Source of the DNA: Thermoproteota archaeon
GTDB taxonomy: Archaea; Korarchaeota; Korarchaeia; B14-G2
Assembly: GCA_003661385.1 (NCBI GenBank)
Contig: QMWA01000002.1
Coordinates: forward strand, 1 to 46,451
Length of the DNA stretch: 46,451 bases
Direction: 5' to 3'
This document shows, one piece after another, positions 4,958 to 32,976 of the stretch. How positions within the stretch are numbered: position 1 is the stretch's first letter; every line of letters starts with the position of its first letter. A program made the translations under genes and the position numbers. Under the pieces are notes generated by a model. It ran no database searches, was not told the DNA's origin, and saw nothing but the letters and a program-made list of their open reading frames with translations.

Positions 4958-5043
4958 TGGGCCGGGAGGGACTCGAACCCTCGACCTCCGCCTCGTCAGG
5001 ACGGCCTTATCACAGCGGAGTCATACCCCTAGACCACCGGCCC
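4958..5043 (-). tRNA. tRNA-Val(GAC) with a 14-nt intron at 25/26 (5006-5019)
   Basis: Acceptor GGGCCGG/CCGGCCC. Anticodon arm CCGTC-CTGACGA-GGCGG. Exons are identical to the Val(UAC) gene at 11377-11464 except in the anticodon arm. The intron lies between the D stem and nt 26. Confidence 0.8.
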
Positions 5044-5105: not shown

Positions 5106-5196
5106 TGGTGGACCGGGCGGGATTTGAACCCGCAACCTCCGCGATCACGTCTACATGATGCCAACGCGGCGCGCTACCAGGTTGCGCCACCGGCCC
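5106..5196 (-). tRNA. tRNA-Ala(GGC) with a roughly 14-nt intron near 37/38; CCA encoded
   Basis: G3:U70 pair (GGGCCGG/CCGGTCC). Anticodon stem CCGCG/CGCGG with U-GGC-A in the loop. The 3' ACCA is genomic. Confidence 0.75.
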
Positions 5197-18238: not shown

Positions 18239-18278
18239 GACGACCCCAACAAGTAAGTGGTACAGGATAAACTTAATG

Positions 18279-18376
18279 CGGGCCCGGAGGGACTCGAACC
18301 CTCGACCCCCGGGTCTGGGTTTGAAACTCCCCCACTGCTAAGAGCCCGGTGCTCTACCCAACTGAGCTACGGGCCC
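18279..18376 (-). tRNA. tRNA-Lys(CUU) with a 24-nt intron at or near 37/38
   Basis: GGGCCCG/CGGGCCC acceptor. Arm CCGGG-CTCTTA[24 nt]A-CCCGG. The intron does not fit a strict BHB. Confidence 0.72.
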
Positions 18377-18415: not shown

Positions 18416-18513
18416 TGGACCGGGCGGGATTTGAACCCGCGACCTCCGCGTCTCTCAGGGTAGATGCGACACCGCTACCAGCGCGGCGATCTACCAGACT
18501 GATCTACCGGCCC
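18416..18513 (-). tRNA. tRNA-Ala(CGC) with two introns in the anticodon loop (32/33 at 18470-18480, 11 nt; 37/38 at 18452-18464, 13 nt)
   Basis: G3:U70, and acceptor, anticodon stem and T arm identical to tRNA-Ala(GGC). An embedded U-CGC-A sits at 18465-18469. Both introns give perfect or near-perfect 4-bp central helices (CCGC/GCGG and CUCG/UGAG). A single-intron reading gives Thr(GGU), which conflicts with G3:U70. Confidence 0.65.
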
Positions 18514-23326: not shown

Positions 23327-23896
23327 CTAGCCTTGTGTCCACGAGGATATATATTCTGCTAGCTTTCTCAGAGCTTTTGCTCTGTGGGATACCCTGTTCT
23401 TTTGAGGCCCCATCTCAGCGTAGGTTTCTCCAGACCCCTCTAGTGGGGCAAATATCGGGTCAAATCCCCATCCCGTGTTCCCACGCTCCTCTAGCGTAAT
23501 GTACCCGCTTACCTCAGCCTCCACTATGTGAACTCTATCAGAGGAATCTACCAGAGCCAGTACAGACCTGAACTTAGCTCGTCTATCCTTTACTCCGCTC
23601 ATAAGCTTTAGGATACCCCTACACCCGAGGGTCTTGTATACATAGGAGGAGTATGGGCCAGGAAACCCCCTTAACACGTGGATCTCTAGCGCAGAGTCCT
23701 CTATGAAAAATGGACGGTAGCTTAACTCTCTTGACAGCATCCTAGCACTCTCTGCTGCAACTTCTCTCACATTGCTCCTCTGAACCTCAGTATACTCTTT
23801 TAGACAGATGTCTACAGGAACTCCTAGAGAAGCTAAGATCTGTTTACACTCACTAGCCTTATTCTTATTTGAGGTGATAAACAAGAGAGGCCTCAA
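23327..23896 (-). CDS. non-canonical purine NTP pyrophosphatase (HAM1/RdgB, ITPase)
   Basis: FITSNKNKASE, FFIEDSAL, GWGFDPIF, SHRAKAL motifs. Confidence 0.85.
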   Translation of the reverse strand: MRPLLFITSNKNKASECKQILASLGVPVDICLKEYTEVQRSNVREVAAESARMLSRELSYRPFFIEDSALEIHVLRGFPGPYSSYVYKTLGCRGILKLMSGVKDRRAKFRSVLALVDSSDRVHIVEAEVSGYITLEERGNTGWGFDPIFAPLEGSGETYAEMGPQKNRVSHRAKALRKLAEYISSWTQG

Positions 23897-24519
23897 GCTC
23901 TATACCTCCCTCTGCTATAGATTTCACCTGCCCTCTTCAAGACAGGGGCTGCAGCAGCCCCTCTAACCTCCGTGTAGCCTTTGTTAAATAGGGACACCCC
24001 ATCATGGTAGATGTTGGGGTGAGTAGAGTCTATGCAACGGTAGAGGAGGTGTATGTCCTCACCTTGGTCCTCAATCCTATTAGAGTAGAAGCTAAGCCCA
24101 AAGTCTATCAGATAGAGCCTTCCTCTGGATAATATGACGTTTGATGTGGTTAGATCGCCGTGAATTATTCCAACAGAGTGGAGCTTACCGATCATCGCCC
24201 CGAGATCTCTTAGAAGGAAGGTATTCTTGCTAGACAGTGTATTCCTTAGGGTTAAGCCTGGAATGTGCTCCATTACTATGGTAGCCTCATCTAAATCGAC
24301 ATAGAGGACAGCTGGACAGAGGACACCAGCTTGCTTTGCGTCACGCATGATCTTAGCTTCTAGCATGGTTCTATGTCTTCTTAGCTGTTCATCTAGCTCC
24401 TTTAACCTGTAGCCCTTAGGCTTTCTCACCTTGAAAACAGATGGAATCCCCAGGAAGACTCCCCTGATAAGTATAGCTTCGGCACCAGCAGCTATAACTT
24501 CATGCCTAGCTATCTCCAA
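23893..24519 (-). CDS. bud32: KEOPS kinase Bud32
   Basis: GAEAIL, VFKVRKPKGYR, HGDLTTSNVIL, LIDFGLS motifs. Confidence 0.85.
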   Translation of the reverse strand: MEIARHEVIAAGAEAILIRGVFLGIPSVFKVRKPKGYRLKELDEQLRRHRTMLEAKIMRDAKQAGVLCPAVLYVDLDEATIVMEHIPGLTLRNTLSSKNTFLLRDLGAMIGKLHSVGIIHGDLTTSNVILSRGRLYLIDFGLSFYSNRIEDQGEDIHLLYRCIDSTHPNIYHDGVSLFNKGYTEVRGAAAAPVLKRAGEIYSRGRYRA

Positions 24520-25213
24520 CCTTCTCTCCCTCTTAGCGGGACAAATGCCACAGCACCAGCCTTCTTGGTCGAAACGGATCCCTTAAGATCCTTCCTGACC
24601 ACGAGCAGCTCTTGGCCCCAGAGGGAGTGAGGAGGGCCTATTGGTATAACCATCAGACCACCAGGTGCCAACTGATCGACCAGAGGAGGAGGAACCCTTG
24701 GTGCAGCAGCAGTAACCAGAATCCTATCGTATGGAGCGTGAGGGGGATACCCAACACTTCCATCACCAACTATCACAACGACTCTATCTGAATATCCCGC
24801 AGATTTGAGGTTCTGGATTGCACGTTGGGCTAATATCTCATCTATCTCTATGGAGTACACCTTACCCCACTTAGATCTATCTACATCGAGGGGGGCTACT
24901 ATCTCAGCTATTGTGGCAGCATGGTATCCACTTCCAGTCCCAACCTCCAGCACCTTCATTCCCACGTCAAGCTCTAGGAGCTCATTCATCAGGCAAACCA
25001 TGTCTCGCCCGGCTTACAGCCGTGTGGCGCACTTATGGTTTGCCCTCTCCCTATGGGGAGCGGAATGTCATCGTAAGCCTGCTCTCTTAGGTCTTCTGGG
25101 ACGAAAAGCTCTCGCCTAACCCTTAGGAATGCCTTCTTGACCCTCTCAGTCTTTATAAAGCCTTCGGCCTGCAGTAGCCTGCATAGCTCAGCTCTCCTCT
25201 TATCAAAGCTCAC
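24510..25213 (-). CDS. pcm: protein-L-isoaspartate O-methyltransferase, interrupted by a 20-nt BHB intron (exon 1 25024-25213, exon 2 24510-25003)
   Basis: Upstream ORF: ...[31 protein letters not shown]. Downstream ORF: [29 protein letters not shown].... Together they make a complete PCMT, and the joined length of about 227 aa is typical. A GTG start at 25213 is assumed. Confidence 0.75.
25004..25023 (-). other. predicted BHB (bulge-helix-bulge) pre-mRNA intron in pcm, 5'-ACGGCUGUAAGCCGGGCGAG-3'
   Basis: Helix I GUG(25032-25030)/CAU(25002-25000). Central 4 bp CGCC(25029-25026)/GGCG(25009-25006). 3-nt bulges AC|A (25025-25023) and AG|A (25005-25003). Helix II CGGC(25022-25019)/GCCG(25013-25010). 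Confidence 0.65.
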
Positions 25214-25739: not shown

Positions 25740-25860
25740 GGGCCCGTAGCTCAGCCTGGGCGGTGGGGCAGTTAGAGCGCCCGATGTGTGAGGTGTAGCT
25801 GATAACCGGGAGTGTACTATACGTACACCGAGGTCGAGGGTTCAAGTCCCTCCGGGCCCA
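25740..25860 (+). tRNA. tRNA-Ile(GAU) with three introns (D loop 25760-25771, 12 nt; 30/31 25784-25797, 14 nt; 45/46 25813-25832, 20 nt)
   Basis: The exons rebuild GGGCCCG-TA-GCTC-AGCCTGGTTA-GAGC-G-CCCGG-CTGATAA-CCGGG-AGGTC-GAGGG-TTCAAGT-CCCTC-CGGGCCC-A. Central helices are GCCU/GGGC, CGCC/GGUG, and CGG(G)/(A)CCG plus a GUAC/GUAC inner helix. Confidence 0.8.
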
Positions 25861-27528: not shown

Positions 27529-27639
27529 GGGCCCGTAGCTCAGCTCGGATAGGCTCCTGAGGAGAGCGCCGAGGTTACGTGCAGGCCTGCGGAGAGAGTA
27601 GCGAGCCGGAGGCCGAGGGTTCAAGTCCCTCCGGGCCCG
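27529..27639 (+). tRNA. tRNA-Arg(GCG) with three introns (D loop 27551-27562, 12 nt; 29/30 27572-27584, 13 nt; 37/38 27593-27603, 11 nt)
   Basis: The exons rebuild GGGCCCG-TA-GCTC-AGCTCGGATA-GAGC-G-CCGGC-CTGCGGA-GCCGG-AGGCC-GAGGG-TTCAAGT-CCCTC-CGGGCCC-G. Central helices are UCGG/CUGA, GCGC/GUGC, and CUGC/GUAG. Confidence 0.8.
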
Positions 27640-27641
27640 TC

Positions 27642-29622: not shown

Positions 29623-30585
29623 ATGGTAGAGATTCCACCTGATGTCAGGAAAATACTCAGAAAGCAAGGGTATCAGATTGTGCTGAGGCATTCTGGAGTG
29701 AAGCTGTGCTATTGGCTTAGAAGAGCGCTCCTTGATGGAAGGACATGCTACAAGCACAAGTTCTATGGTATAAGGTCTTGGAGATGTATACAGATGAGCC
29801 CAGCTGTCATATACTGCCCCAACTCATGTCTTTACTGTTGGAGAGTCCAGCAGGGGGACATAGAGGGCTTGAGTTGGAGCAAGCATACACCAGAGGCTCC
29901 TGAAGCATGGGATGACCCTGAGGAGATAGCCAAAGAGAGCATTAAAGCTCAGAGGACGTGCATAACAGGGTACAGGGGTGTTAATGCGATAATGAAGAGG
30001 GTAGAGGAGGCGATGGACCCCAAGCATGTTGCAATCTCACTTAGTGGAGAGCCTACGCTATACCCTAGGCTGGGAGAGCTCATAGAAGTCTATAAGAAGA
30101 TGGGAATGACAGTCTTCTTAGTTACAAATGGGCTTTACCCTGAGAAGCTGCTGTCACTTGAAAGCGAGCCAACCCAACTCTATGTCACTATACCTGCCCC
30201 AAACAGCGAGGTCTATAGAAAGCTCTGCAGGCCATCCCTAAGAGACTATTGGAGCAGGCTAATGAGGACTGTGGAGGCCCTGAGCTCCTTTAGCTGCCCA
30301 ACAGTTATGAGGCTAACTCTGGTGAGAGGCATTAACATGATAGATCCAGAGAGCTATGCTGGAATAATAGCTGCAGGCAACCCTACTTACGTCGAGCCAA
30401 AAGCCTACATGCATGTAGGGTACTCGAGACTTAGGTTAACATTCGCACACATGCCCACTCACGAGGATATAAGAGAGTTCTCAGAGAAGCTGGCAGCAGC
30501 ATCAGGATATGACATCATAGATGAGTCTGCTGATAGCAGAGTCGTGCTACTCAGCAGGCTAAAGAAGCCAATCAGGTTCACATAG
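29623..30585 (+). CDS. taw1: tRNA 4-demethylwyosine synthase Taw1/TYW1 (radical SAM)
   Basis: CYKHKFYGIRSWRCIQMSP...CPNSCLYCWR cluster motifs. A TATA-like GGTTTAAAAAC sits about 30 nt upstream. Confidence 0.85.
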   Translation: MVEIPPDVRKILRKQGYQIVLRHSGVKLCYWLRRALLDGRTCYKHKFYGIRSWRCIQMSPAVIYCPNSCLYCWRVQQGDIEGLSWSKHTPEAPEAWDDPEEIAKESIKAQRTCITGYRGVNAIMKRVEEAMDPKHVAISLSGEPTLYPRLGELIEVYKKMGMTVFLVTNGLYPEKLLSLESEPTQLYVTIPAPNSEVYRKLCRPSLRDYWSRLMRTVEALSSFSCPTVMRLTLVRGINMIDPESYAGIIAAGNPTYVEPKAYMHVGYSRLRLTFAHMPTHEDIREFSEKLAAASGYDIIDESADSRVVLLSRLKKPIRFT

Positions 30586-31315
30586 AGGCTAGCAGGATGA
30601 CTGCGGCTGACTGAGCAACGGAAGCTGCTAAGAACATCCAGTCAGTCTTAGACATCGGAGGAAGCCCATATGCCATGGTCCTCTTCTTAGTGTACCCGAA
30701 GCACCTAGACTCCAATGCTTCAGCCAGCTGGTAGCTCCTCCTTATAGCACACACAAGTATTGGAACGAGGAGAGGTATGTAGTTCTTTAGCCTCCTCAAC
30801 AGAGACCCCCTCTCCAGCTCCAACCCCCTTGAAGCCTGCGCATCCATTATCTCCTGGGCCTCCATTGCAAGCGTTGGTATGAATCTTATAGCGGTTGTGA
30901 AGGTGAATGTCACATAGAATGGTATCCTGAGCTTGGTCATGAGGTCGCTTAGCTCAGATGTGTGTGTAGACCTAAAGAAGCTAGCGAAGCAGACTACTAA
31001 GATCACAAGACGAAGGCCCATTGCAAGTGAAAAGCTGAGGTCTCTTGTGAAAACGTAGTTGAGACCGAAAACCATAGCAAAGAGCAGCGAGGTCGACTTT
31101 AAGAGCGAAAGTACCACGGAAGCCACTCCTCCGAGAGCTATAACCGGCAGAACCATTATGACAGCTATCAGGAGCTGAGCTTTTAGGCTAGAGTACGCTA
31201 TTGAAAGCACCATGGCAGCTACCAGCCATATGAGCTTAGGCCGAGGATCTACTCTGCTAAGCCTTGACAGCTTACCCTCATACTCAAATGCTGCCAGAAA
31301 CGACAGAGCTACCAC
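30578..31315 (-). CDS. ecfT: ECF transporter transmembrane (T) component, EcfT/CbiQ
   Basis: Polytopic membrane protein with the conserved AxRxR-type coupling-helix region (TTAIRFIPTL...AQASRG). It follows two EcfA genes. Confidence 0.8.
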   Translation of the reverse strand: MVALSFLAAFEYEGKLSRLSRVDPRPKLIWLVAAMVLSIAYSSLKAQLLIAVIMVLPVIALGGVASVVLSLLKSTSLLFAMVFGLNYVFTRDLSFSLAMGLRLVILVVCFASFFRSTHTSELSDLMTKLRIPFYVTFTFTTAIRFIPTLAMEAQEIMDAQASRGLELERGSLLRRLKNYIPLLVPILVCAIRRSYQLAEALESRCFGYTKKRTMAYGLPPMSKTDWMFLAASVAQSAAVILLASM

Positions 31316-32129
31316 CTAGCTTGAGAGCTATGCTCTCGGCAAGCACCCCGTAGTCAAGAGACCTCGGTACAGAGAACCCTCTCTTGGATAGGTGGGCGTA
31401 TAGGTCTACAGATACCGGAGGAACCAAGTTACATGACTTAAGAAGGGTATAGTTGAAGAATATGTCTTCAGGAACACCTTCAGCTATCACTTTACCCTTA
31501 GACAGGAGAACAACCTTATCAGCACCTAGCTCGGATGCCCACTCGACATCGTGTGTTATCACAAGCACAGCTTTCCCCTCAGCCTTCATGCCGAAAATCA
31601 GGTCTATAAGAGCCTTCTTCTGCTTTGCATCTTGGCCTATGGTCGGCTCATCTAAGATCAAGTACTTTGGCTGCATCGCATACACAGAAGCTATCGACAG
31701 ACGCTTCATCTCCCCGCCACTAAGCTGCCACGGCGGTGTTGAAGCATATCTCTCCAAGCCAAACTTCCTTAGGACAGAGAGAGCCTCGTCTAAGGCCTCC
31801 TTATCGCCTAATCCTAGATTCCTCAGGCCAAAGGCAACTTCCTCAGCAGCGTTCTCAGCAAAAAACTGGTGCTCAGGGTTCTGAGGCACATAGCCGACTA
31901 TCCTACAGAGCTCTGCTACGCTATGCTCTCGGGTATCTAGGCCATCTACCACAACACGGCCTGACTTAGGCTTCAGCAACCCATTCAATAACTTAGCTAA
32001 GGTAGTTTTACCAGAGCCATTCTCCCCCATCAGAAGAACCACATCCCCATCGCTTATAGTCAGCGATACATCATCTAACACAGTGGCCCCCCTGCTGTAC
32101 CAGAAACAGACTCTTTCAACGGAGATCAA
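31284..32129 (-). CDS. ecfA: ECF transporter ATPase EcfA (A2)
   Basis: Walker A GENGSGKTT, signature LSGGEMKR, Walker B LILDEPT. Confidence 0.9.
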   Translation of the reverse strand: MISVERVCFWYSRGATVLDDVSLTISDGDVVLLMGENGSGKTTLAKLLNGLLKPKSGRVVVDGLDTREHSVAELCRIVGYVPQNPEHQFFAENAAEEVAFGLRNLGLGDKEALDEALSVLRKFGLERYASTPPWQLSGGEMKRLSIASVYAMQPKYLILDEPTIGQDAKQKKALIDLIFGMKAEGKAVLVITHDVEWASELGADKVVLLSKGKVIAEGVPEDIFFNYTLLKSCNLVPPVSVDLYAHLSKRGFSVPRSLDYGVLAESIALKLGGSSVVSGSI

Positions 32130-32976
32130 GGCTACTCACCGCAGATGAAAGCTGATCCACCAGAGAGGAAACTGTCAGGGCTTTGATCGGCAGCTTAATC
32201 CCAAGCTCCTCAAGCTTCAGCTGAAGCTGCACTACACGCGGCGTCGATACCCCAAGAGAACTCAAGTTCGAATCAAATAGCACTTCCTCTGGTGGCCCGT
32301 CTCGCACAAGCTGACCCTCGCTGAAAACCAGGATCCTGGTAGCTAAAGGAGTGAAGACATCAAGCCTATGCTCTACTATCACAATGGTGGTCTCCATCTC
32401 TCTTAGCTGGCTTAGCATTAGAGCAAGCTGGAGAGCGCTCATTGGATCTAACTCAGCAGTAGGCTCATCTAGGACAAGAAGAAGCGGCCGCATAGCGACC
32501 ACAGCTGCTAGAGCTGTCCTCTGCTTCTCTCCACCAGATAGCTTGTATGGGGGGACATCACGTAGGCGGTCGAGGCCAAAGTACTTCAGTATGAACTCTG
32601 TTCTCTTGATTATCTCCTCCCTTGGAAGGCCTAGGTTCTCAAGGCCAAAAGCTATCTCCCTCTCTACTGAAAGAGAGACCAGCTGGTTATCAGGATTCTG
32701 AAACACCAAGCCCACATCCTTAGAGAGAACATACACGGGAATCGTCCTAGTGTCAACTCCATTAATGAAAACACAACCCGAGAACTCACCTTCATAGAAG
32801 TGAGGGATTAAGCCGTTTAGGAGCCTGCAGAACGTCGACTTCCCTGAGCCGCTTGCACCTGTGACCAGTACCACTTCTCCTCTCTTAATTTGCAAACTCA
32901 CGTCTACTATGGCAGGAGCGCTGCTTCCAGCATACTTGAATGTAACATTCTGGATGTCAACTATAGGCTCTGGCAT
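32116..32976 (-). CDS. ecfA: ECF transporter ATPase EcfA (A1)
   Basis: Walker A GASGSGKST, signature LSGGEKQR, Walker B LVLDEPT. Confidence 0.9.
   Translation of the reverse strand: MPEPIVDIQNVTFKYAGSSAPAIVDVSLQIKRGEVVLVTGASGSGKSTFCRLLNGLIPHFYEGEFSGCVFINGVDTRTIPVYVLSKDVGLVFQNPDNQLVSLSVEREIAFGLENLGLPREEIIKRTEFILKYFGLDRLRDVPPYKLSGGEKQRTALAAVVAMRPLLLVLDEPTAELDPMSALQLALMLSQLREMETTIVIVEHRLDVFTPLATRILVFSEGQLVRDGPPEEVLFDSNLSSLGVSTPRVVQLQLKLEELGIKLPIKALTVSSLVDQLSSAVSSLDLR

Follow-up and report, generated by a model that had tools for sequence, protein, structure and literature searches.

A putative bulge-helix-bulge intron interrupting the pcm gene in Bathyarchaeia and a Kor3-like archaeal lineage

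The interrupted pcm gene and its conceptual splice product

Here we analyzed the gene for protein-L-isoaspartate O-methyltransferase (PCMT, gene pcm) in a 46,451-nucleotide (nt) stretch of archaeal DNA (Thermoproteota archaeon, contig QMWA01000002.1; "the window" refers to this whole stretch), where the coding sequence is interrupted by 20 nt that have the features of an intron of the bulge-helix-bulge (BHB) type. Two open reading frames (ORFs) on the minus strand, 25300-24989 and 25001-24510, are the halves of pcm, and the Pfam profile PCMT (PF01135) is covered from position 3 to 60 by the first and from 61 to 209 by the second, the two matches abutting exactly; the first-pass annotation of this DNA had read the two frames as contiguous parts of one protein, and the bases and coordinates that it quoted are all present in the sequence. 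The junction on the minus strand is ...GGG CAA ACC ATA AGT GCG CCA C/ACGGCTGTAAGCCGGGCGAG/AC ATG GTT TGC CTG ATG AAT GAG... (slashes mark the predicted cut sites), and excising 25023-25004 (ACGGCTGTAAGCCGGGCGAG, 20 nt) yields ...CCA C/AC ATG GTT..., which is translated in frame as ...GQTISAPH/MVCLMNE... and regenerates the His-Met pair, as the annotation had foreseen.

The product spliced in silico has 227 amino acids (aa) and covers positions 3-209 of the 210 in the PF01135 profile, with a score of 220.7 bits and an E value of 2.4e-65. Alignment with the PIMT structures 2yxe, 1jg1 and 4o29 was free of gaps across the TISAPHMV junction, with E values of 1e-49 to 1e-55 (1.5e-55 for 2yxe from the Protein Data Bank). 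Left in place, the insert shifts the frame, the read-through stops 10 codons on at TGA 24991-24989, and the unspliced messenger RNA (mRNA) would yield a 74-aa N-terminal fragment only. The probable start of pcm is GTG 25213, in preference to ATG 25300, according to the gene calls on four identical contigs (L004, L005, L007 and L008) mapped to the window. The parts of the gene are the following:

25024..25213, minus strand: pcm exon 1, with the GTG start at 25213-25211, residues 1-63 and the first base of His64 (from ORF and translation; PF01135 positions 3-60)
25004..25023, minus strand: predicted pcm BHB intron of 20 nt, ACGGCUGUAAGCCGGGCGAG, bounded by a cut behind the second nucleotide in either bulge
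24510..25003, minus strand: pcm exon 2, with the last two bases of His64, Met65-Arg227 and the TAG stop at 24512-24510 (PF01135 positions 61-209)

Predicted RNA fold at the junction

The minimum-energy structure was computed for the 61-nt region 25048-24988, with 200 dinucleotide shuffles serving as control. The region folds with -29.7 kcal/mol (z = -5.35) and none of the 200 shuffles was as stable. The elements of the motif, all on the minus strand and described as they appear in this minimum-energy fold, are:

25026..25029, minus strand: 5' strand of the central helix, CGCC, formed by exon 1 bases of the Ala and Pro codons and paired with 25006-25009
25006..25009, minus strand: 3' strand of the central helix, GGCG, formed by bases of the predicted intron
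25023..25025, minus strand: bulge of the 5' splice site, ACA, unpaired; predicted cut between C25024 and A25023
25003..25005, minus strand: bulge of the 3' splice site, AGA, lying within a 5x4 internal loop; predicted cut between G25004 and A25003
25010..25022, minus strand: inner intron hairpin, CGGCU paired with AGCCG, with a 5-bp stem and a GUA loop
25035..25045, minus strand: 5' arm of the exon-exon outer helix, GGGCAAACCAU, in the Gly-Gln-Thr-Ile codons; 11 bp with 24991-25001
24991..25001, minus strand: 3' arm of the exon-exon outer helix, AUGGUUUGCCU, in the Met-Val-Cys-Leu codons

The first-pass annotation had described a textbook hBHBh' motif. Its central helix, ACA bulge and inner hairpin are present, but the strict form, in which GUG and CAU pair as helix I, is possible in the window only at a cost of 4.1 kcal/mol relative to the minimum-energy fold (at 37 C), and helix I is not conserved among relatives, as described below. 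The 10-bp exon repeat, offered there as a mere alternative helix, exists as well, is lengthened to 11 bp by G25045-C24991 and is rather the favoured outer stem in this lineage. As modelled, the pcm motif would be a BHB that is relaxed at its 3' site, which predicts a broad-specificity enzyme of the (alpha-beta)2 or epsilon2 type; the cbf5 introns have likewise been described as relaxed BHB (PMC10485636). At high temperature the BHB may be stabilised by the long exon helix that the window lineage has, an idea that is based on the contigs of this lineage coming mostly from JGI samples whose identifiers adjoin Guaymas-labelled ones.

Independent assemblies and the Kor3 relative

The identical 20 nt were found in at least five independent assemblies (ENA ERZ27227318, JGI 3300022470, JGI 3300014887, Logan SRR6478753 and Logan SRR7051321), which answers the concern voiced in the first-pass annotation that the insert might be an assembly artefact. 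The nearest reference genome is the metagenome-assembled genome (MAG) of Thermoproteota archaeon isolate Kor3 (JAVCBW010000025), with 85-88% protein identity, and its pcm carries at the same site an insert of 21 nt, ACGGCUGCUAGGCCGGGCGAG, that is in frame but contains a TAG. Comparison of the window with the Kor3 gene gave ratios of nonsynonymous to synonymous substitution rates (dN/dS) of 0.04 (exon 1) and 0.05 (exon 2) at saturated synonymous sites (dS 1.5-1.7). With such low ratios, both exons are under strong purifying selection. Within the insert every stem and bulge base is identical between the two genes, their sole difference being one extra loop base in Kor3, and the pairing of the exon helix is kept through a compensatory change of CAA to CAG with GUU to GUC (A-U to G-C), together with one change from G-C to G-U.

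An insert that breaks the frame could also signal a frameshifted pseudogene or an error of sequencing or assembly, and annotation of the NCBI type would indeed flag the locus as disrupted, only fragments of it having been called. Against this stand the identical insert in the independent assemblies, the dN/dS values of 0.04-0.05, and the more than 100 independent pcm genes described in the next section that carry structured inserts at the same codon between intact exons. We assign this explanation a practically negligible chance and consider that the comparative data effectively refute both pseudogene and artefact.

Inserts at the same codon in other archaea

A protein-similarity search of reference genomes, which is independent of the motif, retrieved 16 archaeal pcm loci. 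Two of the 16 are interrupted, both between His64 and Met65 and both with a BHB: the Kor3 locus (L009 in this set; 21 nt with the in-frame TAG) and that of a Bathyarchaeia MAG (L023), with an insert of 31 nt and a protein of 50-57% identity. The motif of the Bathyarchaeia gene is clean, having a central helix of CACC with GGUG, two ACA bulges and a 10-bp hairpin, and its excision gives ...SAPHMVS.... Relative to the window, one G-C pair of the central helix is replaced there by A-U, through the third position of an exon codon and a base of the insert. In silico, both the frame and SAPHMV are recovered in the window, in Kor3 and in the Bathyarchaeia gene when each bulge is cut behind its second nucleotide. 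No intron was seen in the Pyrodictiaceae and Korarchaeum pcm genes retrieved here.

Metagenome contigs were then scanned with a pattern in which just the pcm codons on either side of the junction and a GGNG ahead of the 3' bulge were fixed, the G-C pair equivalent to G25030-C25002 being forced as well. All counts in this section and the next two that come from the scan refer to the matches listed. At least 118 pcm genes (118 of 119 matches) have inserts of 19-36 nt at the same codon, and these give 116 unique junctions, all of them in pcm. Insert lengths leave a remainder of 1, 2 or 0 on division by three in 61, 34 and 21 junctions, respectively, a distribution that the pattern does not force; the frame is thus shifted in 95 of the 116, and the 21 in-frame inserts all contain a stop codon. 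Wherever the flanks are complete (103 of 103 loci), excision yields a PCMT of 210-260 aa. Neither the stops nor the intact flanks are imposed by the pattern.

The 5' bulge always has 3 nt (ACA in 85 junctions, UCU in 20, ACU in 8 and UCA in 3), and in every one of the 116 it is followed without a gap by a stem, 2 bp or longer (median 6), which the pattern does not force and which has 0 bp in 60% of shuffles. The central helix is CGCC with GGCG in 112 junctions and CACC with GGUG in 3, one junction having a mismatch, and the one position of this helix that the pattern leaves free is complementary in 115 of 116. Covariation was measured in the 45 junctions with a 31-nt insert, which can be aligned without gaps. 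All nine pairs of the inner helix change on both sides, the first of them being U-A in 24 sequences and C-G in 21 and never unpaired, while the central helix is paired in 45 of 45 with its free position G-C in 43 and A-U in 2. The covariation score was 0.371, as against 0.170 +/- 0.012 for shuffled data (reached in 0 of 500), and structures slid by 1-3 columns scored at most 0.127.

Two elements proposed from the window sequence did not withstand this comparison. Helix I (GUG with CAU) as a conserved element was discarded, being neither conserved nor energetically favoured: its second and third pairs can form in only 37% and 27% of sequences, and in the 31-nt set only its first pair is kept, the rest being mostly unpaired. 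A general exon-exon outer helix was likewise discarded, since only the pairs dictated by codons are frequent and the third position of the Thr codon is mismatched in 71% of sequences; the perfect exon-exon helix is specific to the window lineage.

These junctions also bear on translational recoding, in which ribosomes would hop over the insert, as they do in phage T4 gene 60, or shift frame across it. The stable hairpin within the gap is reminiscent of gene 60, but only 4 of the 116 junctions offer take-off and landing codons that match, and since the gaps of 19-36 nt occur in every frame, many of them with stops, simple +1 or -1 shifting cannot cross them. We know of no bypassing system described in archaea, and recoding seems to us extremely unlikely.

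Distribution, gain and loss

The taxonomy of the carriers was taken from the NCBI labels of the MAGs. At 60% identity the proteins obtained by in-silico splicing form five clusters:

Large sediment cluster: at least 75 members, predicted intron of 28-35 nt; includes the Bathyarchaeia MAG gene L023, with near relatives named Bathyarchaeota or Bathyarchaeia at NCBI
Soil cluster: at least 17 members, predicted intron of 19-23 nt; named members Candidatus Bathyarchaeota (TMI42886.1) and "archaeon 13_1_20CM_2_51_12"
Window and Kor3 cluster: at least 8 members, predicted intron of 20-21 nt; Thermoproteota archaeon isolate Kor3
Cluster of L056 and L090: at least 2 members, predicted intron of 30-31 nt
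Cluster of L073: at least 1 member, predicted intron of 29 nt

The window cluster is 57-60% identical to the other clusters, no closer than it is to the intron-less PCMTs of Pyrodictiaceae, Korarchaeum and Methanomethylicia. Intron-less alleles occur at up to 93% protein identity to intron-bearing ones (L141, compared with P0248 on a 275-kb Bathyarchaeota MAG contig), and four of them (L176-L179) equal the DNA of the intron-bearing L105 minus exactly the segment that the BHB defines (...GCGCCTC/ACATGGTATCCA...). Rough parsimony on an unweighted pair group (UPGMA) tree of 385 sequences requires at least 30 changes between presence and absence; given the crude tree method and the bias in sampling, no more follows from this than that gain or loss is frequent. 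Taken together, the pcm inserts appear to be one family of introns at one codon junction, present in many Bathyarchaeia and in the Kor3-like lineage and precisely gained or lost among close relatives. The putative intron would be a widespread, polymorphic feature, mainly of Bathyarchaeia, and not a one-off.

The four intron-less alleles L176-L179 keep the junction codons of their intron-bearing relatives (GCG, CC[TC], CAC, ATG), and distant intron-less archaeal pcm genes use varied codons for Ala (GCT, GCA, GCC) and Pro (CCC, CCG, CCT) and mostly CAT for His. The BHB may constrain the choice of exon codons, or only such codons may permit the intron, the comparison being confounded by phylogeny.

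A gene that is split without any splicing would produce an N-terminal piece of about 74 aa and a piece of 163 aa beginning at the conserved Met, which would assemble non-covalently into an active PCMT. Exon 2 always opens with the ATG of the His-Met motif, which makes an internal start formally available, and gene callers predict both pieces. The same Met is equally conserved in intron-less PCMTs, however, and for that reason Met65 is not an evolved start codon; the bases just upstream of the ATG (GGGCGAGAC in the window and CUAGGCGAAAC in Bathyarchaeia) do not look like a Shine-Dalgarno sequence by eye, and the read-through tails past His64 are variable junk among the matches. Nor would a split gene explain the covarying hairpin that abuts a 4-bp helix between exon and insert, the conservation of the spacer between the window and Kor3 at an evolutionary distance where synonymous sites are saturated, or the exact absence of the BHB segment from intron-less alleles. 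We regard such a split as very unlikely.

Neighbouring genes and tRNA genes of the window

Two genes flank pcm in the window:

23893..24519, minus strand: Bud32/RIO-type kinase gene, downstream of pcm (ORF list; Pfam families on the identical contig L004)
25233..25676, plus strand: DUF371 gene, divergent and upstream of pcm (gene calls on L004 mapped to the window)

The start of the kinase gene (TTG 24519) overlaps the stop of pcm (24512-24510) and a Ham1-like gene comes next. Because of this overlap pcm and the kinase gene are probably co-transcribed, which would place the intron in the first cistron of an apparent operon. Only 19 nt lie between the start of pcm (GTG 25213, minus strand) and that of the divergent DUF371 gene (25233, plus strand), which leaves two options, promoters that both reach into coding sequence or leaderless transcripts. 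The pairing of DUF371 with pcm was also observed beside the intron-bearing pcm of the soil Bathyarchaeota lineage (L175).

The position of pcm at the head of an apparent operon is what could be expected if the BHB served as a site of mRNA processing or decay, cleaved without re-ligation, lowering pcm or separating it from the kinase and Ham1 genes, and there are BHB sites in archaeal ribosomal RNA (rRNA) and mRNA targets of yeast TSEN that are cut without productive joining of exons (PMC10485636). Were the exons not rejoined, none of these organisms would have a functional PCMT, although strong purifying selection acts on both halves, the exons are intact in 103 of 103 loci, and the cut sites are placed such that ligation restores both the frame and a conserved motif. 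To cleavage alone we give only a slight chance.

ARAGORN found seven credible transfer RNA (tRNA) genes in the window, five of them interrupted by introns of 11-24 nt, and in addition made one call that was mis-joined. The five are:

377-463, 4958-5043, 5106-5196, 18278-18376 and 18416-18513, minus strand: tRNA genes with ARAGORN-predicted introns of 11-24 nt

At the approximate boundaries given by ARAGORN, the strict BHB register fits only the intron of tRNA-Glu, whose canonical 37/38 intron is reproduced by the cut after the second bulge nucleotide; the other tRNA introns of the window probably lie at non-canonical positions or comprise several introns per gene that ARAGORN does not separate. 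The first-pass annotation had stated that this cut reproduces 13 of the 15 tRNA introns in the window, which the approximate ARAGORN boundaries confirm for tRNA-Glu alone. At least five intron-containing tRNA genes in the window imply that the host would possess an active endonuclease and BHB splicing. The mis-joined call, a tRNA-Cys with a 1806-nt intron, was rejected as an artefact in which the 5' half of a multi-intron tRNA at about 25740-25860 is joined to 27581-27641. The genuine tRNA at 25740-25860 (plus strand, about 121 nt, GGGCCCG...GGTTCAAGTCCCTCCGGGCCCA) contains about 45 nt of intron sequence and was missed by the Rfam gathering scan. Its counterpart in Kor3 (L001, 3781-3901) was annotated as a tRNA-Ile gene with an intron of 45 nt, overlaid by the spurious call of an ORF of 44 aa.

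Proposed splicing of the pcm transcript

Taking all these results, we propose with a probability of roughly 85% that the pcm insert is a BHB intron within an ORF, removed by the tRNA-splicing machinery. This is what the first-pass annotation had put forward, and the exact junction, the independent assemblies, the purifying selection, the inserts at the same codon and the covariation all argue for it; a BHB intron is the only explanation considered here that accounts for all of the evidence. The pre-mRNA can fold such that the last four paired bases of exon 1, CGCC, pair with GGCG of the intron, followed by a 3-nt bulge containing the 5' site and then by the intron hairpin. Across from these, the other strand has the 3' splice site in a bulge or an internal loop, which the 11-bp exon-exon helix closes in the window lineage. 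The splicing itself we infer by analogy with that of archaeal tRNA, rRNA and cbf5. The endonuclease EndA would cut each bulge behind its second nucleotide and leave 2',3'-cyclic phosphate and 5'-OH ends. An RtcB-type ligase would then join the exons as ...CCA C/AC AUG..., restoring the His-Met junction, and through RtcB the 20-nt intron would be released, probably as a circle.

Several observations weigh against this proposal. With regard to the product, ten exact reconstructed spliced proteins were absent from a collection of 15 billion proteins, and the spliced form was not among the best matches in protein searches. No gene for EndA or RtcB was seen in the window, where no search aimed at them was made. 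With regard to the motif, the minimum-energy fold offers no clean 3-nt bulge at the 3' splice site, only the 5x4 loop closed by the 11-bp exon helix; the outer helix of most relatives is a single G-C pair plus weak pairing dictated by codons; and a relaxed 3' site would require a broad-specificity endonuclease. The scan pattern presupposes the junction codons and three of the four pairs of the central helix, and conservation at those positions is not independent evidence. A BHB as such carries no weight either, since loose motifs (outer stem of at least 2 bp, inner stem of at least 3 bp, intron of 12-70 nt) are no rarer in the window than expected by chance, with 452 found as against about 485 in first-order Markov random sequence.

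Finally, some in-frame inserts are free of stops and annotated as translated, namely in P0121, P0122, P0125 and P0128 of the soil lineage. We consequently gave up as a universal rule that every in-frame insert has a stop, a rule that holds for the junctions listed and is broken by these four read-through proteins. In P0121 and P0348 (NCBI TMI42886.1), for example, the read-through is SAPH-VPKKDGRD-MVAIM; in this group, which includes locus L175 (707-1405), public annotation gives the protein 7-8 extra residues behind the conserved His. One protein cluster at 90% identity mixes 232-aa read-through forms with 154-aa C-terminal fragments; these forms stand side by side, and therefore the length of the insert drifts between frames. 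Such drift among near-identical proteins argues against the insert encoding a functional peptide.

The frequency of the loose motif, no higher than in random sequence, was dropped as evidence, and so was the criterion that excision should fuse two ORFs, for 42 of 1828 even looser motifs join two open stretches of at least 60 codons. The best-looking ORF-fusing candidates, 31317-31338 and 2752-2819, turned out to be boundaries between complete, unrelated genes. The stretches 31284-32976 and 30578-31315 (minus strand) belong to an energy-coupling factor (ECF)-type transporter operon, with two ATP-binding cassette (ABC) ATPase genes and a transmembrane component whose start and stop codons overlap, and the BHB-like motifs at the gene boundaries of this operon are chance matches. 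What does go beyond chance is the coincidence of the motif with the exact frame-restoring excision, estimated at about 3e-4 (three equivalent cut choices at about 9e-5 per start-end pair), together with the comparative data, and it is the latter that carry the weight of the case.

Whether the intron has a function is a separate matter, and by default we consider it a tolerated element, selfish or neutral, under structural constraint. It is unlikely, in our view, that it acts as a conserved post-transcriptional switch that makes the output of PCMT dependent on splicing by EndA and RtcB. If it did, PCMT synthesis would be tied to the state of the tRNA-splicing machinery, to how the BHB folds at different temperatures, or to stress, and pcm would be an archaeal counterpart of the splicing of XBP1 and HAC1 by IRE1 and RtcB. 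Two observations are compatible with such a switch and are no demonstration of it: the intron sequence is strongly constrained when the window is compared with Kor3, where synonymous sites are saturated, and the intron is retained at one codon across distant lineages.

Comparison with known systems

Watanabe in 2002 and Yoshinari in 2006 are said to have described the cbf5 pre-mRNA intron of Crenarchaeota. According to PMC7714728 (Schwarz 2020), cbf5 had the only BHB intron previously reported in archaeal mRNA, to which that study added an intron in the 5' untranslated region (5' UTR) of Haloferax HVO_1309; a 2023 review (PMC10485636) counts "at least two archaeal genes", cbf5 and the 5' UTR case, and expects more, and a 2025 Nucleic Acids Research paper (PMC12397907) cites only the cbf5 work. 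These sources bear out the statement of the first-pass annotation that cbf5 is the sole well-documented protein gene with such an intron, HVO_1309 being the addition to it. Unconfirmed predicted introns in other genes are mentioned in PMC2738675 (Yokobori 2009), which cites a Sulfolobus rudivirus paper and a chapter on Sulfolobus genomes. Our search of the open-access literature for isoaspartate with intron and BHB or splicing endonuclease gave no prior report of a pcm intron, and a wider search of the same literature gave only cbf5 and HVO_1309.

The implications are several. With more than 100 natural variants of 19-36 nt, clear covariation and presence or absence that is polymorphic up to 93% protein identity, the pcm genes form a dataset suited to studying how endonucleases recognise relaxed BHBs in mRNA, how introns are gained and lost, and how splicing competes with coupled translation. 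If spliced, pcm is mis-annotated in these genomes, as two fragments, as a pseudogene or with a spurious insertion of 7-8 residues (for example, TMI42886.1). A search with flanking codons and half of the central helix could also be extended to other protein-gene introns in archaeal metagenomes.

The archaeal tRNA and rRNA introns share with pcm the 4-bp helix, the flanking 3-nt bulges and the cut after the second bulge nucleotide, and those in the tRNA genes of the window (11-24 nt) are of similar size. In pcm, by contrast, the exon part of the motif consists of codons constrained by the protein, there is no tRNA body for recognition, and ligation must restore the frame. In HVO_1309 of Haloferax volcanii (PMC7714728), as would be the case in pcm, the archaeal splicing endonuclease acts on an mRNA and not on tRNA or rRNA; unlike in pcm, the HVO_1309 intron lies in the 5' UTR and leaves the frame uninterrupted, its host is a euryarchaeon with a homodimeric endonuclease, and it is a case from a single species and not a conserved family. 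The splicing of XBP1 and HAC1 by IRE1 and RtcB (PMC13149111, PMC8718801) offers an analogy only: there too a structure-specific endonuclease and a tRNA ligase take a very short, frame-shifting intron (26 nt in XBP1) out of a mature mRNA, in this case in eukaryotes, but the endonuclease is IRE1, which recognises twin stem-loops, and the splicing is a regulated stress switch.

The cbf5 intron (in Aeropyrum, Sulfolobus, some Desulfurococcales and Thermofilum; PMC2738675) is the closest known case. The host genes differ, a pseudouridine synthase on the one hand and a protein-repair methyltransferase on the other, they are unrelated and their introns are not homologous; the lineages differ as well, Crenarchaeota as against Bathyarchaeia and the "Thermoproteota Kor3"-like archaea; and splicing of cbf5 was shown experimentally, whereas that of pcm is predicted here from sequence. 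Like cbf5, pcm would have a short BHB intron within the ORF of an archaeon of the TACK group (Thaumarchaeota, Aigarchaeota, Crenarchaeota and Korarchaeota), relaxed in its BHB at one splice site, disrupting the frame, patchily distributed with gain and loss among relatives, and presumably removed by EndA and an RNA ligase. In more than 20 years no archaeal gene other than cbf5 has become known to carry a BHB intron within its coding sequence; pcm would end that, as a second and independent archaeal gene with an ORF-interrupting BHB intron, previously unreported in the searchable literature.

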